From Spirochaetia bacterium (GTDB lineage: Bacteria; Spirochaetota; Spirochaetia; UBA9216): a DNA stretch of 64,000 bases. How positions within the stretch are numbered: position 1 is the stretch's first letter; every line of letters begins with the position of its first letter. Below the pieces are notes generated by a model. It ran no database searches. It had not been told where the DNA came from and saw only the letters and a program-made list of their open reading frames with translations. Positions 1 through 13,166 of the stretch are shown here, piece after piece. A program made the position numbers and the translations under genes. The stretch covers positions 1,152,001 to 1,216,000 of the forward strand of contig CAXXYH010000004.1 of assembly GCA_963677925.2 (NCBI GenBank), given 5' to 3'.

Positions 1-75
1 GCATCGTCGCTATACGCTCCTCGGGCGCGCCACATACGGCTTCGCCGTACGTCACATAACCCCGGGACGTTAGAC
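1..75 (+). repeat. attC site 0 (family A, left-truncated)
   Basis: ...CCACATACGGCTTCGCCGTACGTCACATAACCCCGGGAC-GTTAGAC (core 69-75); near-identical to 792-882. Confidence 0.9.
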
Positions 76-128
76 GAAATCACGAACCTAAGAGAAAGAG
101 GATGCTTGCCATCCTTGGCAAGCAAAGA

Positions 129-161
129 TTGACAAATTTATGTAATTACTATATAATTACA
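129..161 (+). promoter_or_regulatory. sigma70 promoter with palindromic TA operator (mazEF cassette)
   Basis: TTGACA(129-134)-N17-TATAAT(152-157); TGTAATTA-ctata-TAATTACA palindrome 141-161. Confidence 0.85.
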
Positions 162-176
162 ATAAAGAGGTGTATT

Positions 177-425
177 ATGTTAGTTTCAGTGGTTCCTATA
201 GGCAATTCAAAAGGAATACGAATTCCGAAGAGCATTTTGCAACAGTTAAATATTGAAGAAAAAGTTGAATTAGAAGTGCATAATACAGAAATACTGATTA
301 GACCAATAAAGAAAAAGCCAAGGGAAGGATGGTCCGAAGAGTTTATGAAGATGCATCAAAATGGGGATGATTCATTACTTTTAGACAATTTGACTGAACA
401 GGGTGATTTTGAATGGGAATGGTAA
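177..425 (+). CDS. mazE: AbrB/MazE family antitoxin
   Basis: IGNSKGIRIPK AbrB motif; C-terminal EWEW typical of PemI/MazE; start moved to ATG 177 after GAGG. Confidence 0.88.
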   Translation: MLVSVVPIGNSKGIRIPKSILQQLNIEEKVELEVHNTEILIRPIKKKPREGWSEEFMKMHQNGDDSLLLDNLTEQGDFEWEW

Positions 426-742
426 TTCATCAATATGAGGTATATTTAATAAACTTAGATCCAACAGTTGGCCATGAAATAAAAAAGACAAGACCTTGTT
501 TAGTGATTTCACCAAATGAAATGAATGAAACAATCCAGACTATTATTATCGCTCCAATGACAACAAAATCACATACATATCCTACTCGTGTAGCTGTTAA
601 GTTTCAAAATAAAGATGGATGGATTGTTTTAGATCAATTAAGAACTGTTGATAGGAAGAGATTAATTAAAAAGATTGGTAAAATAAATAGAAAAGAAGTA
701 GATCTCGTCAAGAATGTGCTACAGGAAATGTTAATAGATTAA
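413..742 (+). CDS. mazF: PemK/MazF family endoribonuclease toxin
   Basis: LDPTVGHEIKKTRPCLVIS and DQLRTVDRKRL motifs; overlaps the antitoxin (start may be 419). Confidence 0.92.
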   Translation: MGMVIHQYEVYLINLDPTVGHEIKKTRPCLVISPNEMNETIQTIIIAPMTTKSHTYPTRVAVKFQNKDGWIVLDQLRTVDRKRLIKKIGKINRKEVDLVKNVLQEMLID

Positions 743-791
743 AGCCAAACAACATCCATGTTGCTTGGCTTTGAAGAAGGTTCGTGACATC

Positions 792-882
792 GTCTAACAA
801 GGGTTATTCGCTCGTCACTACGCTCCTCGGGCTGCGCCACATACGGCTTCGCCGTACGTCACATAACCCCGGAACGTTATCC
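792..882 (+). repeat. attC site 1 (family A)
   Basis: GTCTAAC(792-798)...GTTATCC(876-882); inner AGGGTTAT/ATAACCCC boxes. Confidence 0.92.
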
Positions 883-938
883 GAAATATTGTGGCTTGAA
901 GAAACTCGCCTTCCTTGGCTCGTTAGAAAGAATTAAGA

Positions 939-972
939 TTGATAAAAATTAAAAAGTGTTGTACAATGTACA
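939..972 (+). promoter_or_regulatory. sigma70 promoter with tandem TGTACA operator (vapC-phd cassette)
   Basis: TTGATA(939-944)-N17-TACAAT(962-967); TGTACA at 960-965 and 967-972, the known YefM/Axe-type operator core. Confidence 0.75.
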
Positions 973-973
973 T

Positions 974-1366
974 ATGAGCATATTGGTAGATGCAAACATA
1001 TATTTAGCAGTAATTCTCGATGAGCCGGAAAAAAGCAAAATTATTGGATTAACTCAGGAAGATGATCTGATATCACCGGTTGTTTTACCTTTCGAAGTGG
1101 GAAACGCTCTATCTGCAATGTATAAAAGAAATAGATTAGATAAAAGTCAAATAATTGATTGTTATTCAATATTTCAGAAAATACCAGTGCGTTTGATTGA
1201 TGTTAATATTCAAAACTCATTAGTAATAGCAGCAGATTATGGAATATATGCCTACGATGCGTATTATTTGGAGATAGCAAAACGATACAAATGCAGTTTG
1301 TTGAGTTTGGATAATAGAATGAAAGAAGTGGCTAATGATTTAGGAGTTCACTTATTGGAGGTCTGA
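974..1366 (+). CDS. vapC: PIN-domain VapC toxin (upstream of its antitoxin)
   Basis: ILVDAN, EVGNAL, YAYDAYYL and LSLD PIN motifs; ATG 974 preferred. Confidence 0.88.
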   Translation: MSILVDANIYLAVILDEPEKSKIIGLTQEDDLISPVVLPFEVGNALSAMYKRNRLDKSQIIDCYSIFQKIPVRLIDVNIQNSLVIAADYGIYAYDAYYLEIAKRYKCSLLSLDNRMKEVANDLGVHLLEV

Positions 1367-1591
1367 ATGAGAGTTTTTAATTATTCAGAAGCAAGGCAGA
1401 ATTTCGCTTCAATATTGAATATGGCAGCAGAAGAAGATGTCATAATAGCAAAGAAGGATGGAAGCAGATTTAAGATTGTACCGCTTACTAAAAATGAAAG
1501 CAAATCACCATTTGATGTTCCAGGAATTAAAAGTAAAGTTACAACCAAAGAAATTCTTGATGTAATTAGAGAAACTCGAGAGTTATCGTAG
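1367..1591 (+). CDS. Phd/YefM family antitoxin
   Basis: YSEARQNFASIL...DVII N-terminal Phd motif; GGAGG RBS. Confidence 0.85.
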   Translation: MRVFNYSEARQNFASILNMAAEEDVIIAKKDGSRFKIVPLTKNESKSPFDVPGIKSKVTTKEILDVIRETRELS

Positions 1592-1643
1592 AGAAGAAAG
1601 CCGTAATTACGTCCTGTAATTACGGCTTAAGCCACAATACTTC

Positions 1644-1725
1644 AGATAACAAGGGTTACACGCTCCGGCCATTCGGCCTACGCCCAAATTGCTGCGCAAC
1701 TTCGCTTAACCCTGGAACGTTAGCT
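1644..1725 (+). repeat. attC site 2 (hybrid A/B)
   Basis: AGATAAC(1644-1650)...GTTAGCT(1719-1725); AGGGTTA/TAACCCT boxes. Confidence 0.88.
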
Positions 1726-1799
1726 GAAATGCAACCGCTAAGAGAAAGACGCCCGGACCTCCGGTCGACGGGCGATCATGAAGAGAAAGAATATAAAAA

Positions 1800-1828
1800 T
1801 TGACATGATATATATCAAGGTATATACT
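1800..1828 (+). promoter_or_regulatory. sigma70 promoter with VapBC-type palindromic operators
   Basis: TTGACA(1800-1805)-N17-TATACT(1823-1828); TGATATATATCA 1806-1817 and GTATATAC 1820-1827. Confidence 0.8.
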
Positions 1829-1846
1829 TAAAATAGAGGTGGGTAT

Positions 1847-2077
1847 ATGCAAACGGCAAAAATTTTTCAAAATGGAAGATCTCAAGCTATTAGGATACCG
1901 AAAGAATATCAGTTTAAAGGTGATGAAGTATACATTCAAAAGCATGGCGATGCTGTACTGTTGATTCCGCATGAAAAAGCTTGGGAAGTCTTTATGGAAG
2001 GCATAAATGAGTTCACAGAAGATTTTATGAAAGATGGAAGAGAACAAGGCGAAGTACAAGAGAGAGAAGCATTTTAA
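1847..2077 (+). CDS. vapB: VapB antitoxin (AbrB-type)
   Basis: TAKIFQNGRSQAIRIPKEY signature. Confidence 0.92.
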   Translation: MQTAKIFQNGRSQAIRIPKEYQFKGDEVYIQKHGDAVLLIPHEKAWEVFMEGINEFTEDFMKDGREQGEVQEREAF

Positions 2078-2475
2078 TGTATTTACTTGATACTAATATT
2101 TGTATATTCGCGATTAAACGTAAGCCTTCAAAAGTATTTGAATTAATAAAAGAAAGATCTAAAGAAGGAATATATATTTCATCATTAACAGTAGCAGAGT
2201 TGGAATTTGGTGTTCAAAATAGTGAACGAGAAGAGCAAAACAGAATAGCTCTTCTAAAATTTCTTTCTGTATTCAATATTTTAAATTTTGATGATTCAGA
2301 CGCAATAGATTATGGGAGGATGAAAGTAGATTTAAGAAAGAATGGTAATGTAATTGGACCAATTGATATGTTATTGGCTGCGCAAGCTTTGAATAAAGAT
2401 ATGATATTTGTAACCAATAATGTAAAAGAATTTGAAAGAGTAAAAGGTTTAAGAATAGAAGATTGGAGTGTTTAG
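2077..2475 (+). CDS. vapC: VapC PIN toxin
   Basis: YLLDTNICI, IGPIDMLLAAQA and VTNNVKEFERV; TAATG coupling to vapB. Confidence 0.93.
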   Translation: MYLLDTNICIFAIKRKPSKVFELIKERSKEGIYISSLTVAELEFGVQNSEREEQNRIALLKFLSVFNILNFDDSDAIDYGRMKVDLRKNGNVIGPIDMLLAAQALNKDMIFVTNNVKEFERVKGLRIEDWSV

Positions 2476-2529
2476 AAGAATCCAGCCCTAACTCCGTCGA
2501 ACGGTCTGGATGAGGAGCGGTGGCACTAC

Positions 2530-2623
2530 AGCTAACAGGGACTATGTGCTCGTCGCTTTATGCTCCTCGGCCTTCGCCACATACGGCTTACGCCGTACGT
2601 CACATAACCCCGGGACGTTATGT
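2530..2623 (+). repeat. attC site 3 (family A)
   Basis: AGCTAAC(2530-2536)...GTTATGT(2617-2623). Confidence 0.92.
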
Positions 2624-2686
2624 TCAATGCCCGGCTTAAGAGCTTAATAGTCCTCGGCAATCCGTGGCCTCGGGAAGGAAGAAGAA

Positions 2687-3676
2687 ATGAAAAGTAATGC
2701 AGAAAAAACAATACAATCTCTTAGAAAGATTAATGATTTCCCTTTTTATATCGCAAAATATTATGGTGACTATAAAATTACTGAATATAAGAATGGAGCG
2801 ATAAAAAGTCCAAATGATATAGTTCCTTTTTTTAAAAATCTTTTTTCAGAATTAGGACAACCAACAGAGTTAAGTTTTCCAAAGCCTCCTGAAATCAATT
2901 TAGGTTGTAGTGCTTTTTTCTGCCGCGATAAAAAAAACTCTGCTATCATTGGTAAAAACAATGACTGGAAAAGAGATCCAATTCTTTTACTCAAGACAAC
3001 ACCAGATGAAGGCTATACATCATTTTCTATGGTTAATTTGAGTTTCTGTGATTTATTTCAATTAGGTTCTTTTGATCACAATCTATTATTATCACCTTAT
3101 GTTCCACTCGATGGTATGAATGAGATTGGGCTTGTTGTAACAACATTGGCTGTTCATGAAGGTTCAGAATATCCGCTAAAATCAAATCATTTATCAGTTG
3201 GTGATTTTAATTTAGTAAGAATTATCCTTGATACATGTGCCAATATAGATGAAGCAATCGTTATAATTGATCAGTATAATATAATGCAAACAGGTCCGCT
3301 TCCAATACATCTTCTTATCGCTGATAAAAGTGACTCTTGTATAGTTGAATTCTTTGATGGAAAGAAACATATAAAAAGAGATCAAGATTTAAACTACTTA
3401 ACAAATTTTCTTAAACTGAAAACTTCTGATTATGAGAATCAAAGGAATCTTTGTAATCGGTATCAGACTATAGAAAGACGGTTTAAGCAAGATAAAATTA
3501 TCATTAAAATTCATGAAGCAAAGAAAATTTTTTCAGAAGTATCAGTTTGTACTGGAAATTTTCAAATTCCAAGTACCATCTATTCAACAATATATTGTCC
3601 GAATGATTTAAGTCTGAAAATAAAGATAGGTGATGAATCAAAATATTACTCGTTATCGCTACAGGAGAGTAAATGA
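2687..3676 (+). CDS. Ntn-hydrolase (linear amide C-N hydrolase / C45-like)
   Basis: Internal nucleophile motif GCSAF, GKNNDW, PLDGMNEIGL, HLLIAD, LTNF. Confidence 0.8.
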   Translation: MKSNAEKTIQSLRKINDFPFYIAKYYGDYKITEYKNGAIKSPNDIVPFFKNLFSELGQPTELSFPKPPEINLGCSAFFCRDKKNSAIIGKNNDWKRDPILLLKTTPDEGYTSFSMVNLSFCDLFQLGSFDHNLLLSPYVPLDGMNEIGLVVTTLAVHEGSEYPLKSNHLSVGDFNLVRIILDTCANIDEAIVIIDQYNIMQTGPLPIHLLIADKSDSCIVEFFDGKKHIKRDQDLNYLTNFLKLKTSDYENQRNLCNRYQTIERRFKQDKIIIKIHEAKKIFSEVSVCTGNFQIPSTIYSTIYCPNDLSLKIKIGDESKYYSLSLQESK

Positions 3677-4239
3677 CAGATATTGAAATCCTGGGGCTAA
3701 ATAATAGCTTCTCTTTTGAAGAATTAAAGAGAGCTTTCAGACAAAAATCAAAACAATTTCATCCTGATAAAAATCAGGATAACTTGAATAGCCATCTTGC
3801 GATGATTCAATTGAATCAAGCATATTCAAATCTTCAGAAGAAAATCAAAGAAAAGCCTGTTTTGAATAATCGGGACCTATCCATAGATACTGCATATTCA
3901 ATATATAAAGATGGAATCTCAAAGTTTCAGAGTATCCATCCTTCCAAATGGAAATCATATTCTATCGATGGACTTTTTGATCCAAGTGCAATTAACACTC
4001 ATTCTGAAACACCTTTAATTTTACAATCTTTAATAACACTGATGGCAGAAGCTTATCATCGTTTTTCAACTGTAGTGAACGAACATGAAAATAGTTCTTG
4101 GTATTCAGATTCAATAACGAAAATGAAAGAAATTGAGAAAATGACACAACGGTATATCAAGATAAAGGAATCATATGAAATAGAAATGAATGATAGAAAG
4201 CGGATCAGAAAATCTGTCCATGGACTTTCTGAAAATTGA
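3673..4239 (+). CDS. J-domain (DnaJ-like) protein
   Basis: ILGL...ELKRAFRQKSKQFHPDKN...LNQAY J-domain with HPD; ATGA overlap with the upstream gene. Confidence 0.85.
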   Translation: MTDIEILGLNNSFSFEELKRAFRQKSKQFHPDKNQDNLNSHLAMIQLNQAYSNLQKKIKEKPVLNNRDLSIDTAYSIYKDGISKFQSIHPSKWKSYSIDGLFDPSAINTHSETPLILQSLITLMAEAYHRFSTVVNEHENSSWYSDSITKMKEIEKMTQRYIKIKESYEIEMNDRKRIRKSVHGLSEN

Positions 4240-4261
4240 AACCAAACCTGCCGGGCAATAA

Positions 4262-4408
4262 ACATAACAGCGAATATGCGGTTGCGCTTCGCTCCACCCA
4301 AATTGCTTCTTTGATAAAATCTGAAAAAAGTATGTTATACTTTTTCCAGATTTTATCAAGCCCCGCAAGGGGGCTGAAGCAACTTCGCATATTCGCGAAA
4401 CGTTATAT
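4262..4408 (+). repeat. attC site 4 (family B, long, 147 bp)
   Basis: ACATAAC(4262-4268) GCGAATATGCG...CGCATATTCGC GTTATAT(4402-4408). Confidence 0.88.
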
Positions 4409-4557
4409 GATATAATTGAGCAGGCGGCAAATAGACACTCGCCGTCCTGGCTTGTGTGTAAGAGAATATAAATGATTTAACAATTAATAAATGATTAAAA
4501 ATTTCAAATAGAATATAAAATCATTTAGGTTTATTTTTAGGAGAAGAAAGAAGAAGA

Positions 4558-5043
4558 ATGAAAAAATATCATTTAAATAATCGTCCAAACCGTGAATTAA
4601 CAAATGAGATTGATATTACAGCAATTTTAGAAAGTGGGAAATATGCTGTAATTGCTATGTGTCGTGATAATGAACCATATATTGTTACTTTAAGTTATGG
4701 TTATGATTCATTAAAAAAATGTTTATATTTTCATTGTTCACCTATTGGGCTAAAGCTCGATTTTATAAAATATAATGCGAAAGTTTGTGCGACAGTAATT
4801 GAAGATGGTGGATATATAGTTGATGAATGTGGTCATAATTATAGAACAGCAGTTTTCTGGGGTAATATAAATATAGTTTTAGATTTAGATGAAAAAAAGC
4901 ATGGAATGAAAATGATACTAAATCATCTTGAGGAAAATCCATCAATAATTAAGGATAAGTTATTAAAGTCAGGCGACTTTTATTCAAAGATGGAAATATT
5001 AAGGCTTGATATTTCTCAGATTCATGGGAAAGCAGGAAGATGA
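4558..5043 (+). CDS. Pyridoxamine 5'-phosphate oxidase-like / NimA-like flavin-binding protein
   Basis: EPYIVTLSYGY, LYFHC...GLKLD, YRTAVFWG motifs. Confidence 0.8.
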   Translation: MKKYHLNNRPNRELTNEIDITAILESGKYAVIAMCRDNEPYIVTLSYGYDSLKKCLYFHCSPIGLKLDFIKYNAKVCATVIEDGGYIVDECGHNYRTAVFWGNINIVLDLDEKKHGMKMILNHLEENPSIIKDKLLKSGDFYSKMEILRLDISQIHGKAGR

Positions 5044-5116
5044 TTTTAAGAGAAGTCGAAAGGCCCAAAAAACGTCCATATATTTGGGGGGGTAAATGAT
5101 AGTGCTCAAGTACGTC

Positions 5117-5211
5117 ATATAACAGGGGCTATGTGCTTCATCGCTGTGCGCTCCTCGGGCTGCGCCACATACGGCTTGCGCCGTACGTCACATATCCCCG
5201 TGAAGTTAGAT
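5117..5211 (+). repeat. attC site 5 (family A)
   Basis: ATATAAC(5117-5123)...GTTAGAT(5205-5211). Confidence 0.9.
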
Positions 5212-5229
5212 TCAATATGTCAATAAACA

Positions 5230-5880
5230 ATGAAAAAGGAGATTCCTATGACACAATTTGGTAAACCAACAGGGAAAATGGGCAAAATACTGGCAAAAGG
5301 ATTTGCTTTTGGTCATAAGGATTTTTATAAGAACACAGCATTCATTGCTGGATTAACAGAATCTGATGAATTGCTGGAAATCGGGTTTGGTTCCGGAATG
5401 TTTATTAATAAATATGCAAAGCATATAAAACATATTGCCGGATTAGATATTTCACCGGATATGGTTGAATTAGCAAAAGAGATTAACAGTAAATTGCTTG
5501 ATGAAAAAAAGCTAGAACTTATAGAAGGAAACATTTTATCATTACCTTGGAATGATAATTCTTTTTCAGTCATCATTAGTATAGAATCATTTTTCTTTTG
5601 GGAAAATGTCGAAAAAGCCGTGTTAGAAATTTATCGTGTTCTAAAACCGGGAGGAAGGATTGTTATAGAAATGGCATTTAATTTGGAAGACGGTCAAGAT
5701 CATACAAAAGATATAAAGAAAATTGGATTTCAACTTTATGAGGAGAAGAATATCCGGAATCTTTTGAACGAATCAGGTTTTATTGATGTTTCTTTCAATT
5801 ATTATAAAGCATTTTGGATTCCTATTAAGGGATATATTGTCACAAAAGGTATGATCTTTAAGGCTTGTAAGCCCCATTGA
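5230..5880 (+). CDS. Class I SAM-dependent methyltransferase
   Basis: LLEIGFGSG, GLDIS, RVLKPGG; start may be 5248. Confidence 0.88.
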   Translation: MKKEIPMTQFGKPTGKMGKILAKGFAFGHKDFYKNTAFIAGLTESDELLEIGFGSGMFINKYAKHIKHIAGLDISPDMVELAKEINSKLLDEKKLELIEGNILSLPWNDNSFSVIISIESFFFWENVEKAVLEIYRVLKPGGRIVIEMAFNLEDGQDHTKDIKKIGFQLYEEKNIRNLLNESGFIDVSFNYYKAFWIPIKGYIVTKGMIFKACKPH

Positions 5881-5888
5881 CATACTAC

Positions 5889-5967
5889 AGCTAACAGGGG
5901 CTATACGCTCCTCGGGCTGCGCCACATTCGGCTGCGCCGAACGGCACATAATCCCGAAACGTTATGT
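5889..5967 (+). repeat. attC site 6 (family A, short)
   Basis: AGCTAAC(5889-5895)...GTTATGT(5961-5967). Confidence 0.88.
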
Positions 5968-5995
5968 GTCATCTGTTGAAATATCTGGAGGTATG

Positions 5996-6472
5996 ATGAA
6001 TATAAATAAGGGAGTTGAATTAAGAAAAGAAGGCAAACTAATAGAATCAAATAACTTCTTTATAAAACTTGCAATTGAATACCCTAATGATGCCATAGTT
6101 CAGTATCAATGTGCATGGAGCTTTGATGTTTTAGAGAAAGAGACAGAAGCGATCTATTATTATGAGAAAGCAATAGAACTTGGTCTGCAAGATAATGATC
6201 TGAAAGAAGCATTGCTAGGTTTGGGTAGTACTTACCGGTCAATTGGTGAATATGAGAAATCAAAACAGACATTTGAGAAGGGAATCTCATTATTCAATGA
6301 TAATTCCTTAAAGGTTTTTTATGCGATGACCTTATACAATTATGGAGAATATTCCAGGTCTATGGATTTATTACTCAATATTATTGCGAACACAACCCAA
6401 GATAAATCTATATTAACATATAAAAAGGCAATAAAGTTTTATTCAGGGAGATTGGATGAGGTATTTAACTAA
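5996..6472 (+). CDS. Tetratricopeptide repeat protein
   Basis: EAIYYYEKAI, ALLGLGSTYRSIGEYEKS; start after GGAGG (5993/5996). Confidence 0.85.
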   Translation: MNINKGVELRKEGKLIESNNFFIKLAIEYPNDAIVQYQCAWSFDVLEKETEAIYYYEKAIELGLQDNDLKEALLGLGSTYRSIGEYEKSKQTFEKGISLFNDNSLKVFYAMTLYNYGEYSRSMDLLLNIIANTTQDKSILTYKKAIKFYSGRLDEVFN

Positions 6473-6484
6473 GGAAAGAATGAC

Positions 6485-6560
6485 ACATAACAGCGAATAT
6501 ACGGTTCCGCTTTGATTCACCCAAACTGGCCGTTGACCAGCTTCGCATATTCGCGGGATG
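6485..6560 (+). repeat. attC site 7 (family B), GTT core site deleted
   Basis: ACATAAC GCGAATAT...CATATTCGCGGGA is followed directly by TGGCAATAAGCAC, with no GTT. Confidence 0.8.
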
Positions 6561-6629
6561 GCAATAAGCACTATATTTATTGAGAAAAGCTGAATCTGCC
6601 ATCCATGGCAGATAAAAGGATTTAAATGC

Positions 6630-7454
6630 ATGATTTATGAATTGGACAAAGCAGATTATTATAGGGCCGAGAATCTTTTTACCAAGTTGAAAACAAACAC
6701 AGCAATTGAGTCAATTTTTAACCATAAAAACGAAGCTCGTCTGTTTGTTGATAATCCAAGTAAACCGAAAAGCATCTTCATTCTTAATTCATGGGCTTAC
6801 TACTATCTGGCTGGTGAATCCGAAAATGAAAAATTTAATTCTTCATTAGTTAAGTTTCTTGAAAATGATTTTTTTCCAGAATGTCTCAAAACAAATTCTA
6901 ATACAGTTTTCGCATTTTATCCCGATAGTAACCAGTGGTGTAAAAAATCTGAAGAAATATTTTCTCATTTGAATATTGAAAAATCGGGAAAAACCTATTT
7001 TAACTATGATGAAAAACGTTTCAATAAAAACTGGAGAGAAAATATTCCTGAAGGTTTCAGTGTAAAAAGAATCAGCTCGGAAATTATTAATTCAATTGAA
7101 AATAATGAAGAATTTGTAAATTACATAAAATTTGCCTGGACAACAACTGATCAGTATTTTGACAAAGGATTGGGATACTGTGCTATTGATGCAAATGATT
7201 TTGCAACAATTTGTATTTCTGTTTTTGCTTCTGAAAATGAGCGAGAAGTGGGGATTAAAACATTTCCTGACTTTCAAAGAAAGGGATTGGCATATGTTAC
7301 AGCCTGTGCCTATATTGAAGAATGTTTAAAAAATAATTTTGTTCCTGTCTGGTCATGTTTTAGCGAAAATAAAGTATCAATAAGATTAGCAGAAAAACTT
7401 GGCTACAAAATCGAAGCCTCGCATCCGATTTATTTTGCGAAGATTGGTGATTGA
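6630..7454 (+). CDS. GNAT family N-acetyltransferase
   Basis: EVGIKTFPDFQRKGLA and NKVSIRLAEKLGY. Confidence 0.88.
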   Translation: MIYELDKADYYRAENLFTKLKTNTAIESIFNHKNEARLFVDNPSKPKSIFILNSWAYYYLAGESENEKFNSSLVKFLENDFFPECLKTNSNTVFAFYPDSNQWCKKSEEIFSHLNIEKSGKTYFNYDEKRFNKNWRENIPEGFSVKRISSEIINSIENNEEFVNYIKFAWTTTDQYFDKGLGYCAIDANDFATICISVFASENEREVGIKTFPDFQRKGLAYVTACAYIEECLKNNFVPVWSCFSENKVSIRLAEKLGYKIEASHPIYFAKIGD

Positions 7455-7514
7455 AGAAAACGTATCGCTGGGCATCCATGCCTCTCTACAGGCTTGCATT
7501 CCTGTGCTTGCTGC

Positions 7515-7663
7515 CTATAACAGAGAATATACACTGCGGCTCGCCTTGGCATTCTGCAAATCGCCTTTGACAAATACCTGATGAAATGTGATACAATTTC
7601 CCATATATTTATTACCCCTATAGGGGTGCCAGGCGACTTTCGTATATTCGAGGAACGTTAGGC
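7515..7663 (+). repeat. attC site 8 (family B, long, 149 bp)
   Basis: CTATAAC(7515-7521) GAATATAC...GTATATTC GTTAGGC(7657-7663). Confidence 0.85.
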
Positions 7664-7682
7664 CATAATTTATGGAGAAAAA

Positions 7683-8141
7683 ATGGATGTACATATAAGT
7701 AAATTAAACTCCAATACGGATGTTCCTATGGATTTATTGCTACTTGCCGATCCATCGGAAGAATTAGTTAAAAGTTATCTTAAAAAGGGAACATGCTATA
7801 TCGCTGAATTTGATGAAGAAACAGTTGGCGTTATTCTTATTGTGGAGACAAAACCACATACTGTTGAAGTTATGAATCTTGCGGTTAAAGAAGAACTGCA
7901 TAATAACGGTATAGGCAAAAAACTCCTCTTGCACGTTATTGAAGAAATAAAAAAAAGTGATACAAAAACAATTGAAATCGGAACTGGAAATCCCGGAGTA
8001 GTACAAATGTTATTGTATCAAAAGTGTGGTTTCCGTATCGTAGGGATAGATTTTGATTTTTTTAGAAGGACGCATCCTGAACCGATATATGAGAATGGAA
8101 TAGAATGCCGTGATATGATAAGAATGAGAATTGAGTTATAG
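7683..8141 (+). CDS. GNAT family N-acetyltransferase
   Basis: LLLLADPS, NLAVKEELHNNGIGKKL, LYQKCGFRI. Confidence 0.9.
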   Translation: MDVHISKLNSNTDVPMDLLLLADPSEELVKSYLKKGTCYIAEFDEETVGVILIVETKPHTVEVMNLAVKEELHNNGIGKKLLLHVIEEIKKSDTKTIEIGTGNPGVVQMLLYQKCGFRIVGIDFDFFRRTHPEPIYENGIECRDMIRMRIEL

Positions 8142-8175
8142 TATGGAGGGTCTTAACGGTTTTATCCATAAACAG

Positions 8176-8257
8176 CCCTAACAGCGAATATGCGGTTCTA
8201 CATGGCTTCAACCAAATTAGCCTGCGGCCAACTTCGCATATTCGCGGGACGTAATCT
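8176..8257 (+). repeat. attC site 9 (family B), core mutated to GTA
   Basis: CCCTAAC(8176-8182) GCGAATATGCG...CGCATATTCGC GTAATCT(8251-8257). Confidence 0.8.
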
Positions 8258-8541
8258 GAAATGCCACCGCGAAGATGTAGCTGCCCGGGTCTCCGGCCGG
8301 CGGGTGATTCTGCAGAGAAAGAATTAAAAACTGTCACGATATATCAAGGTCTATACTTTAAGTAGAGCTGAGTATATGTAAAACTGCAAAAATATTTCAG
8401 AATGGAAGATCTCAAGCCATTCAAATCCCGATAGAATATCAGTTTAAAGGTTATGAAGTATACATTAAAAAACATGGTGATGCTGTATTGCTGATTCCAC
8501 ATGAAAAAGTATGTGAATTAATAAAAGAAAGATCGAAAGAA
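8251..8541 (+). pseudogene. Degenerate, internally deleted copy of the vapBC cassette at 1719-2536
   Basis: Leader, promoter and vapB 5' part align with 1719-1979 (ATG followed by TAA at 8376-8381), then jump to vapC sequence 2135-2166. Confidence 0.88.
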
Positions 8542-8544
8542 TAT

Positions 8545-8865
8545 AATCCGGTTTATGATGGTCCTCAATTTAAAAATATTAATATCAAACCTTTCAGAAT
8601 AAATGAGTCTGCATCTGAAGAACTCTTTAAGATTAGATATTTTTTCAATCAAAATAAAAATACATTTTACTTTCTTTTCAAGAAAAAAGAGTTAATTGGT
8701 GCAACTCTATATCTGTGAAATTATATTCAATCGCTCTGCATTAACCGAAAGTACCAAAGAATGGGATATGGTGCTAAGCTAACAAAATTCGTTGTAAATA
8801 AAATACTATCAGATGGTCATGACAAGGTTACATTAAAAGTTGTAATTGAAAATATTCATAATTAA
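8545..8865 (+). pseudogene. GNAT acetyltransferase remnant
   Basis: After in-frame TGA 8716-8718 the frame continues NYIQSLCINRKYQRMGYGAKL...VTLKV (GNAT motif A). Confidence 0.7.
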
Positions 8866-8923
8866 TGTTATTAATTATAAGTTTGTCTTTTGTGACAGGC
8901 TAATTCAAAAGTAGGAGAAACGT

Positions 8924-9391
8924 ATGAGTTTCAAAAGCAAAAATGAATTAGGTCTATCTGACGTATGTTGTAAGAATTTTTTAAATGATTTAGAAACCGA
9001 AAATGTTTGGAGTTTTTTTCAAAGATTTGAAAAAGATTCAGACCCCACCGATTTAACTGTAGCCGAAGAGTCTTATTTTGATAATTTTCTGTTTTGTGAT
9101 CCAAGTAGTGCTAATTCAATTAAGAAAGAAGATTTCTTGAAATTTTTACCAATTATGACAACTAAATATAAAGAGTTGGGGTACAAAGATAAAAAGTTAA
9201 AAGGACTAGATGTCATCAAATTGAATGATTATTATCTATTAGTCAATGTTACCTGGAATATGATATTTGTAAAGAATGATTTATTAAATGAATATGATGA
9301 TATTAAAGCTACTTATATTTTAAAAAAAGAAAAAAATGGGCATAAAATTATATTTCATTTGGATCATCAAAAATTAAGTGAGATTGTCTAA
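8924..9391 (+). CDS. NTF2/SnoaL-like hypothetical protein
   Basis: AGGAG RBS; YLLVNVTW...ATYILKK...KIIFHLDH NTF2-like C-terminus. Confidence 0.6.
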   Translation: MSFKSKNELGLSDVCCKNFLNDLETENVWSFFQRFEKDSDPTDLTVAEESYFDNFLFCDPSSANSIKKEDFLKFLPIMTTKYKELGYKDKKLKGLDVIKLNDYYLLVNVTWNMIFVKNDLLNEYDDIKATYILKKEKNGHKIIFHLDHQKLSEIV

Positions 9392-9477
9392 AAAAAGATA
9401 AGAAATGAAGATAAATCCGTGACTCTTAATAATTAAAATTTCCTCAATCTTTTAAAGATAAAAAGTGAGAAAAATTC

Positions 9478-9520
9478 TTGCAAATCATGTAATAACATAG
9501 TAAGCTATATGTAATTACAT
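9478..9520 (+). promoter_or_regulatory. sigma70-like promoter with two ATGTAAT(T/A)ACAT operators
   Basis: TTGCAA(9478-9483)-N17-TAAGCT(9501-9506); palindromes at 9487-9498 and 9509-9520. Confidence 0.65.
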
Positions 9521-9538
9521 CAATATTTAGGGGCCTCA

Positions 9539-9952
9539 ATGCGTATACCAATAATTAATATCGGAAATTCTAAGGGGATAAGGATTCCTCAGGCAATTCT
9601 TAAACAGGTTAGCTTTAGTGGTGAGATTGACTTAGAAATTGATAATGGAAAAATTGTTTTAAACAGATCCAATAGTCCCGATATAGTACCGGATTTTGAT
9701 TCAATACCGGAAATGGATGATATTACTATACAAAGAATGTTAAGAAAAATAACCGGTATGGATCTGATCACTTCCTTAATAGATGCAGATCAAAGTATTA
9801 AAGAAGCTGTCTATAGAAATCTATCAGAACGCGTTAGAAATTATGTGGTTTTAAAAGTAGAAAAGTTGGAGAAGGGAGATGCTAAAGATTTAATTATTGA
9901 GCAAAGCCGTAATGCTATAAGTGAAGCCTTTATGGATTTAAAAAATGAATAA
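9539..9952 (+). CDS. AbrB/MazE DNA-binding domain fused to a FliG C-terminal-like domain
   Basis: N-term IGNSKGIRIPQ; C-term FDSIPEMDDITIQRMLRKI...DL...IKEAVYRNLSER resembles FliG_C (FEDI..LDDRSIQ..LRE...RNMSKR). Confidence 0.78.
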   Translation: MRIPIINIGNSKGIRIPQAILKQVSFSGEIDLEIDNGKIVLNRSNSPDIVPDFDSIPEMDDITIQRMLRKITGMDLITSLIDADQSIKEAVYRNLSERVRNYVVLKVEKLEKGDAKDLIIEQSRNAISEAFMDLKNE

Positions 9953-9968
9953 AGTAAAGGAGGCTTTA

Positions 9969-10148
9969 ATGGAGAATTTGAATAAGATAATGGAAATGAG
10001 TGACGGGCAAATTCAGGAATCTTTCGACTTATGCAAGGTCTGCAATTGAAAATTCTGTTAATAAATTTAAAAAAGCAGAAATAAAGATTTAGAGATACAA
10101 ACGAGTATTCAATTAATTAAAAGTTTAATTGAAAAAAAGGCAATTGCT
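9969..10148 (+). pseudogene. Broken stand-alone FliG_C-like gene
   Basis: GGAGG RBS; MENLNKIMEMSDGQIQ / RNLSTYARSAIENSVNKFKKAEIK / DLEIQTSIQLIKSLI read across two frame changes and align with the upstream FliG_C domain. Confidence 0.65.
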
Positions 10149-10505
10149 ATGGATATTTTTAAAGCCATAAAAAATGGAAATATAGAATTTATTCGCAATT
10201 ACATTAAAAGTGGAAATGATTTAAGCATAAGAGATTAATATGAAATGACTCCACTGATTGTAGCAACTGATGAAGGTAGATTAGAGCTTGTTAAATTGCT
10301 GATAGAAGCCAAGGCTGATATAAATGATCAAGACACAGTCGGGCAGACTGCTTTGCATTTAGCTGCAGGCAGAAATTACACTGAAATCATAAAACTTTTA
10401 ATAAAAGCAAAAGCAAGAATAGATATTAAAGCTGTTAATCGTTTGACAGCATTTGAATATGCTACGGAAAATGGAATGAAAGAAGCTGCACTGCTTTTAA
10501 AGTAG
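10149..10505 (+). pseudogene. Ankyrin repeat protein with internal stop
   Basis: MDIFKAIKNGNIEFIRNYIKSGNDLSIRD*(TAA 10236-10238)YEMTPLIVA...GQTALHLAA. Confidence 0.75.
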
Positions 10506-10662
10506 GTAGAGAAAATGAGAAATATGTGTATTCATTCCTTGGAACGGTTTATAATATGAGTCGGGATAAATTGATATCAGGCACTATTTAGAATTGTTAA
10601 AAAAAGAGGAATCCATAGCCGTATAGAAAGCTCTTGTTGTATATGCGGTTTTGAGTTATCTA

Positions 10663-11454
10663 ATGAAGATTGAAAACTTAATAAATTCATATGATTCAAC
10701 AGCTGAAGTTTATGATGAAGAAACAAGTACTTTTCATCATAAAATTTGTGAATTTCTCACAATAAAAAACATGCTTTTAGAATTACCTGAAGATACAAAT
10801 ATAAAAATATTAGATGCTGGCGGCGGCACGGGTAAATATTCAATTATTCTGAATGATTATGGATACTCTCCTGAACTAATTGATATAAGCAGTAAAAGTG
10901 TCGAGGTATTTAATAAGAAAATGGAACAAAGAGGACTGGCTCTCAAGTCGTTTGTATGCAATGCAGAATCAACTCCTTTTAAAAGAGAACGGTTTGATTT
11001 TATTATGATGAACGGCGGGGTGATTGGTTATACTCTTAATCCTTCAATGTTGCTCAAAGAAGTTCATAGAATTTTAAAAGCAGATGGTAAGCTCTGGTTT
11101 GATTTTCCTAACACATTAGGCTGGGCAATTGAAGTACAAGATCCGGGTTTGAAAATTGAATTATCTAAGGCTGATGATAAAATGATTCAGATGCCTGACT
11201 GGGATTATCCAGTAAGACTGTTTAGCTTGAGGAAGATTGAAAAGATGCTGAATGATGCAGGATTTGAGATAAAATCAAAATACGGATTAATTTTTTTGTC
11301 TAATTCCCTTCCTTTGAAAGAAAGATATTCAAAAAAATATAATCTTGAGTTGCTTGAAAAATATAAAATAGCCGAGCTGGAATTAAGCAGAAAAAAAGAT
11401 TGCGTAAGGGCCTCTTGGGCGTGTTCCATTTGTGCAAAAAAAATATTCCATTGA
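10663..11454 (+). CDS. Class I SAM-dependent methyltransferase
   Basis: ILDAGGGTG, IDIS, EVHRILK. Confidence 0.85.
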   Translation: MKIENLINSYDSTAEVYDEETSTFHHKICEFLTIKNMLLELPEDTNIKILDAGGGTGKYSIILNDYGYSPELIDISSKSVEVFNKKMEQRGLALKSFVCNAESTPFKRERFDFIMMNGGVIGYTLNPSMLLKEVHRILKADGKLWFDFPNTLGWAIEVQDPGLKIELSKADDKMIQMPDWDYPVRLFSLRKIEKMLNDAGFEIKSKYGLIFLSNSLPLKERYSKKYNLELLEKYKIAELELSRKKDCVRASWACSICAKKIFH

Positions 11455-11486
11455 ATCACCTTGCGTTTCAGTAAAAGAGAGGTCTT

Positions 11487-11969
11487 ATGAGTAATGCAGT
11501 TTTAATTTTTTTTGCAATAGCAATAATAATGATTGTTGGTTTTTATAAAAATAAAAAATCAAAAAGCATCAGTACCCATGAAAGATTAGAGGATGAAGCG
11601 CTTGATTATAATCAGGAATTTATTGAAAATTCAGAGGGTAAAGATATTATCCCGTTTGTTCGAATTTTTGCACAATCAGATAAACTGATGCTCCGATCTC
11701 TGCTTTCTTCAGAAGGTGTATGCACATACATTACAAATGAAAACACAAACAATCTGTTTCCAGGCAGAATGGTACAGGGCTATACTGATACTGTAATATA
11801 TATTTTCAAAGAGGATCAGGCTATGGCTCGACCAATAATTGAAGACTATATTTTGAATCTTATTGAAAATATAAATCCGGAAATTAAAACAAAGGCAATA
11901 GATTTGGTTGCGGCAATGGCTTTGCTGCCTACCAGTATGAATCAGATATTACCGGAGTTTATTGATTGA
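11487..11969 (+). CDS. Membrane-anchored hypothetical protein (DUF2007-like)
   Basis: N-terminal TM helix; MLRSLLSSEGV...ENTNNLFP...IYIFKEDQAMARPII. Confidence 0.55.
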   Translation: MSNAVLIFFAIAIIMIVGFYKNKKSKSISTHERLEDEALDYNQEFIENSEGKDIIPFVRIFAQSDKLMLRSLLSSEGVCTYITNENTNNLFPGRMVQGYTDTVIYIFKEDQAMARPIIEDYILNLIENINPEIKTKAIDLVAAMALLPTSMNQILPEFID

Positions 11970-12826
11970 GTACTGAAATTTATTATTTTTCCGGTACAGG
12001 AAACTGTCTGTACACAGCCAGAATGATAGGGACAGAAAATAATTTTAAAGTAATCTCAATACCTCAGTTCCTGAAGAGCTCTGATAATACTGTACAGGCC
12101 GAACGGATAATTATTGTCTTTCCGTCATATCTGGCTGCTGCTTGCGGAGTTCCTCTGATTGTAGAAAGGTTCGTTAGGGCAATTGAGGATATTGAACTGA
12201 AAAAGATAACCGCTGTCTGTACATGCGGGGGGTATGAAATAGTAAACGCCAATCCTTCATTGATAAAGCTGAAAAAAATAATTGAATCGGCTGGGGGCAG
12301 GTTGGAAACAAGGTTTTCACTGCGGCTTCCGATGAATAACCTTGATTATGAACATATCCCGGTTCCTATAGAAAAAAGAACCGAGCATATATTAACGCAA
12401 GCCGAGTCAAAATTACAAAAAATCAGTAAACAAATTGGAAGCAGCACAGGGGGGCAATTTGAAATTTCGAATACATTATTCAATTTTATAATACAACCCC
12501 TTTTTAAAATAATGAAAAATGCTACATTAAACAGCTTGAGAGGATATGCAGAAGAGGTTAACCCTTCTTTAAGCTGTAATGAATTATTACCTCTGACAGA
12601 TAGAAGAATTAAAGTTAAGGAAAATTGTAACGGCTGTGGAGTCTGTGCAAGGATATGTCCTGTAGAAAATATTGAATTAATAAATGGAAGTCCCCAATTC
12701 ATGCACAAGTGTGAAGTGTGTTTTGCCTGTGATGAATGGTGTCCGCAGGGCGCTATACAGCACTGGGGCAGATCCCGCGGCGTTAAATACCATCATCCAA
12801 AGATAAAAATAAACGATATGTTTTAG
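11966..12826 (+). CDS. EFR1-family flavodoxin/4Fe-4S ferredoxin
   Basis: YYFSGTGN; CNGCGVCARICP; CEVCFACDEWCP. Confidence 0.9.
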   Translation: MSTEIYYFSGTGNCLYTARMIGTENNFKVISIPQFLKSSDNTVQAERIIIVFPSYLAAACGVPLIVERFVRAIEDIELKKITAVCTCGGYEIVNANPSLIKLKKIIESAGGRLETRFSLRLPMNNLDYEHIPVPIEKRTEHILTQAESKLQKISKQIGSSTGGQFEISNTLFNFIIQPLFKIMKNATLNSLRGYAEEVNPSLSCNELLPLTDRRIKVKENCNGCGVCARICPVENIELINGSPQFMHKCEVCFACDEWCPQGAIQHWGRSRGVKYHHPKIKINDMF

Positions 12827-12872
12827 TTTCCTGCGAAGCAGGAACTTAGTATTATTCAATCAGGAGTGAATT

Positions 12873-13166
12873 ATGGGAATGCATTGTGTTGTCTTTCATT
12901 ATCCAGGACCAAAATGGCAGGATGAATATGATTTTAGAAATCAGCCTGGAATTATGGAACATGTGGAGCATTATTCAAAACTGATGGAGTCAGGGAAACT
13001 TCGAATGGGTGGACCCTTTTCTGATGCAGATTCCGGAGGGATGATGATTGCAGAAGATGGTGTTTCCATGGAAGAAATTGAAAAGTTTGCCTCCGACGAT
13101 CCAGCTGTAAAGAAAGGCCTGCTTACTTTTAAAGTAAGATTGTGGTATGTTCCTATGAGTAAATGA
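12873..13166 (+). CDS. YciI family protein
   Basis: EHVEH...GKLRMGGPF...DDPAVKKG. Confidence 0.85.
   Translation: MGMHCVVFHYPGPKWQDEYDFRNQPGIMEHVEHYSKLMESGKLRMGGPFSDADSGGMMIAEDGVSMEEIEKFASDDPAVKKGLLTFKVRLWYVPMSK

Follow-up and report, generated by a model that had tools for sequence, protein, structure and literature searches.

In ordinary integrons, the two ends of a cassette are reported to pair with each other somewhat past the 7-nucleotide (nt) boxes of the recombination site: Bouvier 2009 (PMC2727003), with reference to Rowe-Magnus 2003 and Sundstrom 1991, puts this self-pairing at 9–11 consecutive nt in most cassettes. In surveys, what counts as an integron is decided by the IntI-specific domain of the integrase, and how IntI arose from Xer-like enzymes is a question framed by Escudero 2016. 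We analysed a 64,000-nt stretch from a Spirochaetia bacterium (GCA_963677925.2, contig CAXXYH010000004.1, positions 1,152,001–1,216,000; hereafter ‘the window’), which sits on contig C4 of the genome we code G000. Its positions 1–8251 are the distal part of a cassette array that starts at C4:1139182, 13 kb upstream of the window. Here, the two ends of a cassette form a long inverted repeat. This stem links only the ends of one and the same cassette, its pairing is conserved although its sequence is not, and one position within it is kept unpaired. The attC-like sites that carry the long stems form a class of their own, in arrays that adjoin a tyrosine recombinase devoid of the IntI-defining insertion. 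In what we consider the best explanation overall, the repeats are probably the outer stem of each cassette’s recombination hairpin, in a distinct site class that goes together with an insert-less recombinase.

Closing stems between the two ends of a cassette

Across the window and the upstream segment C4:1139182–1152000 we curated 22 attC-like sites, yielding 22 cassettes with both ends known. In each site the R'' box ends in AAC, the R' box starts with GTT, and the inner L'' and L' boxes are complementary. The sites occur one per cassette and in a single orientation, as befits integron-type sites, and more of them are present in the related genomes G001, G004, G006 and G007. The MazEF cassette at window 69–876 recurs in identical form at C3:126551–125824 with different neighbours, and another copy exists in G001; identity extends from GTTAGAC to within GTTAT of the next site, a resolution of ~5 nt. 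Its presence in two contexts therefore fixes the cassette boundary at G|TT to within ~5 nt, and the cassettes move as units with this boundary, as integron cassettes do.

The first-pass annotation of this DNA had described nine pairs of complementary arms at the cassette ends. Recomputation returned the same coordinates and match counts, with complementarity continuing ~13 base pairs (bp) beyond the 7-bp core and linking the two ends of one cassette. The features are listed below; arm positions are counted from the G of GTT, and site types A and B are described in the next section.

1–75 (+): 3' part of a type A attC-like site, with the G of the R' GTT at 69
69–798 (+): cassette with MazE-like and PemK/MazF-like genes; arms 69–89/778–798, 19/21, mismatches at positions 10 and 11
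792–882 (+): type A attC-like site; R'' 792–798, R' 876–882, the R arm pairing over ~4–5 bp in the array
876–1650 (+): cassette with PIN and Phd/YefM genes; arms 876–897/1629–1650, 20/22, A·C at position 11
1719–2536 (+): cassette with MazE/AbrB-like and PIN genes; arms 1719–1739/2516–2536, 18/21; attC-like site at 2530–2623
2617–4268 (+): cassette with AAT/choloylglycine-hydrolase-like and DnaJ-domain genes; arms 2617–2635/4250–4268, 17/19, A·A at position 11
4262–4408 (+): type B attC-like site of the AAT/DnaJ cassette
4402–5123 (+): pyridoxamine-phosphate-oxidase-like cassette; arms 4402–4422/5103–5123, 18/21
5205–5895 (+): methyltransferase cassette; arms 5205–5224/5876–5895, 16/20
5961–6491 (+): TPR cassette; arms 5961–5972/6480–6491, 12/12, after which pairing stops; an ordinary-length closure
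6485–6560 (+): type B attC-like site with a damaged R' box, six bases gone (GTTATA expected from the partner arm)
6560–7521 (+): GNAT cassette; arms 6560–6571/7504–7515, 10/12, offset by the 6-nt deletion
7657–8182 (+): GNAT cassette; arms 7657–7676/8165–8182, gapped pairing only (9/18 ungapped)
8251–8270 (+): unpartnered left arm (GTAATCT...) from the decayed cassette that ends the array, a paralogue of the 1719 cassette

In the eight pairs that align without gaps, the left arm always carries A at position 11, which is mispaired in seven, facing C in six and A in one; position 11 is paired only in the 5961/6480 pair. The count for the 6560 pair needs the register of the right arm, because GTTATA was deleted from the degenerate R' box at ~6556–6560; read this way, positions 11 and 12 are the mismatched ones. 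The same loss of six bases has fused two cassettes at this point. The upstream cassettes (C4:1139182–1152000) follow the same closure pattern. For the cassette beginning at 8251, the downstream part of the window yielded neither a right arm nor an attC. The segment from 8251 to 12000 is an A+T-rich array tail with no recognisable sites, its first unit being a decayed paralogue of the 1719–2536 cassette.

Native cassette ends match each other far better than mismatched ones. A local score over positions 8–30 averaged 9.5 for the native pairs of the 22 cassettes versus 3.73 for 462 non-native pairs, and the summed native score of 209 was reached in 0 of 20,000 permutations (permuted sum 87.7 ± 8.7). 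The cassette-specificity proposed from the first reading holds insofar as 20/22 left ends rank their own right end first, the two low-ranking ones belonging to the cassette with the deleted R' and to the one with the 12-nt closure; it needs qualification insofar as cassette families have related ends.

Per-position counts over 33 ungapped long closures revealed a regular anatomy. Positions 1–4 always pair, and positions 5–9 do so in 87–96%. Position 10 is Watson–Crick in 54% and otherwise mostly A·A, while position 11 is Watson–Crick in 0/33: its left base is always A, facing C in 23 closures and A in 10. Pairing then resumes, with 90–100% Watson–Crick at positions 12–19 and all four pair types in use at each of positions 13–19 (93–100% paired), up to the end of the helix at about position 21; farther out, purines stand opposite purines. 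The G+C content of this distal helix is 52%, versus 29% in cassette interiors. The position-11 mismatch is thus as systematic as initially supposed, and mostly a T·G wobble on the bottom strand; among all mismatches at positions 8–21, 31 form wobbles on the bottom strand and six on the top strand, leaving 46 that are a wobble on neither.

Within the array, where the flanks of a site come from different cassettes, the R arm pairs over a median of 5 nt. When a cassette’s own ends are joined, as at a circle junction, the predicted bottom-strand fold gains a mean of 10.9 kcal/mol in stability (standard deviation 4.9, n = 15 cassettes), in line with the longer stem that had been suggested for the excised circle, and the predicted bias of bottom over top strand rises from 3.6 to 5.6 kcal/mol.

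Site classes and the recombinase beside the array

Sites of types A and B share a predicted fold composed of a short R stem, a one-sided 4-nt bulge, 11 uninterrupted pairs and a branched top. In predicted folds, 41/43 distinct A/B sites contain no single-nt bulge in the outer stem, and the one-sided 4-nt bulge is present in 8/8 A/B folds displayed. Both the extrahelical bases and the two-sided central spacer of integron sites are thus absent from the A/B class, as far as folding predictions go. Type C sites, by contrast, are predicted in 21/21 cases to form an internal loop along with a pair of single-nt bulges separated by 5 bp, and by these folds they are the textbook attC with two extrahelical bases.

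The gene beside the array, outside the window at C4:1138043–1139116 and reading into the array, encodes a tyrosine recombinase of 357 amino acids (P0001). Against the integron integrase profile TIGR02249, P0001 scores 194.2 bits, short of the cut-off of 265; its best profile is the XerA-type NF040815 (232.5 bits, cut-off 220), while it stays under the cut-offs of the XerC and XerD profiles. Its closest solved structures are archaeal XerA proteins. P0001 aligns to VchIntIA in two pieces, with ~41 residues absent in between, and likewise lacks the ~40-residue IntI-defining insertion when compared with the IntI of G000 itself. The spacing from KDR to HxLRH is 60 residues in P0001 versus 100 in 16/16 IntI proteins, and a C-terminal SPLD motif is common to both. 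An adjacent integrase with the IntI-specific domain, as an integron has, is therefore missing at this array, and no protein on the window’s contig passes the IntI profile. The first-pass annotation had taken IntI to act here, an assumption that sits badly with an adjacent recombinase lacking the insertion and with sites lacking extrahelical bases.

G000 does encode a canonical IntI on another contig (C3:128526–129455, 382.9 bits), divergent from an array of mainly type C sites, which are of the canonical attC type and have the ordinary 9–10 nt closure. A separate XerC/D-like pair is encoded at C4:2273242 and C4:2277961. The pairing of insert-less gene and array is syntenic: in 5/5 genomes with usable contigs, the array lies 0.07–2 kb downstream on the same strand. 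In G001, G004, G006 and G007, too, the insert-less gene is followed by an A/B array on the same strand, with IntI encoded elsewhere (in two pieces in G004).

Three direct repeats of ~AGKTTTATA lie between the recombinase stop codon and the first cassette boundary (L001:5117–5190, C4:1139117–1139190), a layout that recalls the direct repeats of an attI site. As to the N-terminus of P0001, residues 17–48 give a weak HARP match (22.3 bits, cut-off 25), and many homologues carry precomputed Pfam assignments PF07443 and PF22823 within their N-terminal 75 residues. We considered this domain as a reader of the distal helix and set the idea aside, as recombinases of ~270–280 amino acids without the domain also adjoin signature closures.

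The two site classes are found inside one another. Four type A sites in the array are ~315 nt long (L001:8524–8838, 9766–10082 and 11044–11362, and C4:1149163–1149473) because a complete type C site (~126 nt) with A+T-rich inverted flanks sits in the apical loop of each. The nested type C sites have a 9-bp closure (GCATTTAAC/GTTAAATGC), and each ~315-nt type A site is predicted to fold as one long hairpin of -48 to -62 kcal/mol. Conversely, type C sites delimit a unit at C3:126648–124415 of G000 (minus strand) that has a 9-nt closure and holds two complete A-type cassettes, along with one right and one left half-site of type A; this makes it, in effect, a ‘cassette of cassettes’ within a canonical integron. 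One of its two A-type cassettes is an exact copy of window 69–876.

Arm length and closure signature in other arrays

To place the long stems among integron sites, we compared anchored paired-arm lengths in four sets. In G000, G001, G004, G006 and G007, attC-like sites were detected via L''/L' complementarity, that is, without using the closure itself. The A/B-type cassettes of these five genomes, 64 in number with 55 unique end pairs, have a median arm of 20 nt; it measures at least 15 nt in 48/55 and at least 18 nt in 36/55. For canonical integrons, 80 IntI loci from many phyla were searched on the array side only, with an R-box consensus filter added, which gave 72 adjacent candidate cassettes, 41 of them (from 18 loci) credible by having at least six consecutive matches. 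Their median arm is 9 nt, with at least 15 nt in 1/41 and at least 18 nt in 0/41. Type C cassettes from the canonical IntI arrays of G000, G001 and G007 behave alike (n = 18; median 9.5 nt; at least 15 nt in 2/18, at least 18 nt in 0/18). Non-native arm pairs reach at least 15 nt in 57 and at least 18 nt in 32 of 600 sampled, with a median of 5 nt. Long closures are therefore not generic among the integrons sampled, which include no Vibrio array (median 20 versus 9 nt). The first 9–10 nt of the arms are the ordinary, published part, and what lies beyond is peculiar to the A/B site class. The initial reading had held that the standard description requires only core complementarity; given the 9–11 nt of self-pairing already in Bouvier 2009, this has to be narrowed, the unusual part being that beyond position 11.

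Generic attC finders that rely on minimum-energy folding, with or without constraints, were tried and abandoned: they missed many true sites here and returned similar counts on both strands in G+C-rich loci. Within the C9 array of G001 (L002, L089), a 400-nt cassette (GTTATGCGGACATCGCC...) is present about ten times, with slight differences between copies, and another small cassette (GTTATACTCCATCAC...) about five times. Both have closures of 15–17 nt, and the A·C mismatch is shifted by one base in the 400-nt one.

An independent set consisted of 80 metagenomic loci encoding relatives of P0001 (32–55% identity). We defined a signature closure by 8/9 matches at positions 1–9, a mismatch at position 11 and 8/9 matches at positions 12–20. 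This search returned 23 signature closures in 16/80 P0001-like loci, compared with none in the 80 canonical IntI loci and none in shuffled sequences of either set. A stands opposite C at position 11 in 20/23 of them, distributed over 13 loci, most with the form GAAAT/GATGT. In these 13 loci the array lies downstream on the same strand in seven and upstream and divergent in six, and 13/13 of the recombinases are without the insertion, having 58–59 residues in the insert region. One metagenomic array that was read by eye has sites resembling type B of the window array.

We also built a tree of 46 proteins comprising 16 IntI, 28 insert-less array-linked enzymes and, as root, the host’s two Xer-like proteins. 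The IntI proteins group together (100/100), and their clade arises from inside the insert-less enzymes, which are monophyletic in 0/200 bootstrap trees. As the immediate sister relation of IntI is weak (89/41), the outgroup consists of two long branches and sampling is thin, we treat the nesting of IntI among insert-less enzymes as a lead.

Chromosomal integrons typically carry cargo of the kind seen in this array: MazEF and PIN toxin–antitoxin pairs, acetyltransferases of the GNAT family, a methyltransferase, and proteins with TPR or DnaJ domains. A plastisphere metagenome (run X1) contains a cassette closely related to the MazEF one, covering window 57–879; none of the 27 differences listed falls in the arms, 41 further differences existing beyond these 27. 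Among public runs, assembled contigs of one run contain the stretch and those of one metagenome contain parts of it, and the joints seen are repeated shared sites or modules. Just inside the arms there is a G+C-rich hairpin with TCC in its loop (window 104–123, 744–771, 1596–1628 and 1750–1775, with equivalents elsewhere), flanked by purine-rich runs such as AAGAGAAAGA; one copy lies near the 5' end of the cassette and one past the stop codon, and these modules are common to unrelated genes. Rfam, at its gathering threshold, gave no match in window 1–13000.

Proposed explanation, alternatives and relation to known systems

From the anatomy, specificity and covariation of the stems, and from the association of site class and recombinase, we infer the acting enzyme and the roles of helix and mismatch along the following lines. 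The inverted repeats would be the outer part of the stem of each cassette’s recombination hairpin. With crossover at G|TT, an integrated cassette carries one stem half at each end, and the halves would meet only in the cassette circle or when the two ends pair in single-stranded DNA. Three parts make up the stem: an R arm of 9–10 bp, the length known from ordinary integrons; an irregularity conserved at positions 10–11, where the top strand sets A against C or A (T·G or T·T on the bottom strand); and a further helix of 9–10 bp, free in sequence, whose pairing is kept by compensatory change. When a cassette’s own ends come together, this extra helix would stabilise the folded bottom-strand site and so promote recombination of a free or looped-out cassette. 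The helix may stand in for the extrahelical bases from which canonical IntI derives stabilisation and strand choice. An enzyme without the insertion that grips flipped-out bases would presumably need a site that holds itself shut, and the extra helix together with the long inner stem could supply such self-closure when the cassette is free. Alternatively, in single-stranded array DNA, the helix could bring neighbouring sites together around a looped-out gene. Strand choice, in turn, would be set by the one-sided bulge and by the asymmetry of T·G versus A·C.

Several observations weigh against this explanation. No signature closure was found in 64/80 metagenomic loci, many of which are short contigs and therefore speak neither for nor against it. 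In the five genomes, 7/55 unique cassettes have arms shorter than 15 nt, including one with a 12-nt closure in the window, and the long arm is therefore not obligatory. On the side of the comparison set, attC detection in the 80 IntI loci was heuristic, and the usable cassettes come from 18 loci without a Vibrio array among them. The canonical IntI array on C3 also contains type A sites and one identical cassette, and the loops of type A sites harbour nested type C sites. The separation between the two systems is therefore not clean, and IntI might use A/B sites as substrates. Finally, recombination of the sites, the acting enzyme and the circles are presumed from assembled contigs, and the energetics are nearest-neighbour predictions.

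Among the alternatives, the arms could be a passive relic, complementary by descent from a longer ancestral palindrome or a shared flanking module and of no present function, which matches the footprint of cassette formation suggested in the first-pass annotation. Cassettes with unrelated genes do share end modules of ~55–60 nt that include the arms, such as the GTTATGAGCAATGAGCCCGACA...CGCCCGGACCTCCGG family, the same module ends recur in G001, G006 and G007, and non-native pairs reach at least 15 nt in 57/600 samples. Yet within the GTTATGAGCAATGAGCCCGACA...CGCCCGGACCTCCGG family the arms vary (GGACCCGACA, AAGCCCGACA, GAGCCTGACA, GAGCCCAACA), each with a matched partner, all four pair types are used at positions 13–19 at 93–100% pairing, the helix is G+C-rich within A+T-rich cassettes, and an identical layout, in which position 11 sets A against C in 20/20 closures, stands beside recombinases that are only 34–55% identical. 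Such covariation, together with conservation across recombinases only 34–57% identical, argues for maintained pairing, and we regard a relic as unlikely. Near-perfect pairing of arms of arbitrary sequence would also be accounted for by concerted evolution without selection, in which quasipalindrome correction or template switching copies one arm onto the other. Arm-to-arm correction is known for short quasipalindromes. The arms on the chromosome, however, are 400–1650 nt apart, which is far for template switching, and the process should erase the position-11 mismatch, yet this position is non-Watson–Crick in 33/33 long closures and A·C in 20/20 metagenomic ones; concerted evolution, too, strikes us as improbable.

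That the stems are merely an ordinary, already described integron property, namely the known extension of R'/R'' pairing, draws on the 9–11 complementary nt of Bouvier 2009 quoted above. However, arms of at least 18 nt were seen in 0/41 IntI-locus and 0/18 type C cassettes versus 36/55 here, and signature closures number 0 in 80 IntI loci, which largely refutes this possibility for the sampled integrons and leaves it with very little probability. We give similarly little credence to a role outside recombination, as insulators or terminators between cassettes or as binding sites of a regulator on double-stranded DNA. G+C-rich hairpins and, by eye, apparent promoters do lie just inside the arms, but a local terminator cannot arise from partners at opposite ends of a gene, the GTT/AAC crossover triplets are the exact anchor of the design, and a sequence-specific binder is unlikely because the arm sequence is unconserved beyond position 12. 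The same freedom of sequence beyond position 12 led us to reject the arms as transposon-like terminal repeats.

The recombination-stem explanation may be extended to a sister system of the integron, a reading that we put forward tentatively and would not yet bet on. Such a system would combine an insert-less IntI-like recombinase with sites devoid of extrahelical bases and an own-closure helix of ~20 bp whose fixed T·G/T·T irregularity may be placed one helical turn from the cut; it would be widespread in metagenomes, coexist with and be nested in the canonical integron, and possibly resemble the state ancestral to integron integrases. In the accessible text of the literature searched, we found no description of a second helix, a fixed mismatch, or arrays tied to an insert-less enzyme. 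If the long stem and the insert-less recombinase cooperate, they would constitute a second solution to recombining folded single strands, with DNA pairing doing the job of the contacts that the IntI protein makes to flipped-out bases. Such cassettes, and where they truly begin and end, could then be recognised by the closing stem as a simple signature in the sequence, and the origin of IntI from Xer-like enzymes would become testable with natural intermediates.

With classical attC sites (class 1 integrons and the Vibrio cholerae repeats), which IntI recombines as folded bottom strands, the window array shares one-way cassette arrays, a site of imperfect palindromic form following every gene, AAC...GTT triplets whose GTT marks the boundary, an outer R-arm half that travels with the cassette, and 9–10 bp of pairing between a cassette’s own ends. 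It differs in its second helix of 9–10 bp past the fixed non-pairing position 11, in A/B sites without extrahelical bases (41/43) and with a one-sided 4-nt bulge instead of a two-sided spacer, and in the adjacent recombinase without the IntI insertion. The published self-pairing of 9–11 nt corresponds to the first 9–10 nt of the window arms, and to the median of 9 nt that we measured in other integrons; it stops where the mismatch lies here, whereas positions 12–21 are additional.

Like Xer recombinases, P0001 exceeds the NF040815 cut-off and has archaeal XerA proteins as its nearest structures. Unlike in Xer/dif systems, its gene heads a cassette array (no dif search was made), the genome has a separate Xer-like pair, and the SPLD motif is shared with IntI. 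Treponema-type integrons, whose integrases Wu 2013 reported as IntI, resemble the locus in a recombinase gene that reads towards the array, in a spirochaete host and in attI-like direct repeats after the stop codon, but the co-directional enzyme is insert-less here, and the true IntI of G000 is divergent from its own array. For the integron-like subgroup of recombinases, Smyshlyaev et al. 2021 describe the insertion as ‘not fully conserved’.

With at least two attC sites and no IntI nearby, the window array would probably be filed among the clusters of attC sites lacking integron-integrases (CALIN) by the published criteria of Cury et al. 2016, which we applied rather than IntegronFinder output. 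Since surveys rely on the IntI-specific domain, arrays of this kind are filed as integrase-less and the adjacent enzyme is ignored. As in 29/50 cases of Cury et al. 2016, G000 encodes IntI elsewhere in the genome. The same study concluded that 50 recombinases without the IntI domain near attC sites were not IntI; these may include the P0001 family. What sets the window array apart from CALIN is that one recombinase family is syntenic with such arrays in five genomes and 13 metagenomic loci, and that this family branches next to IntI.

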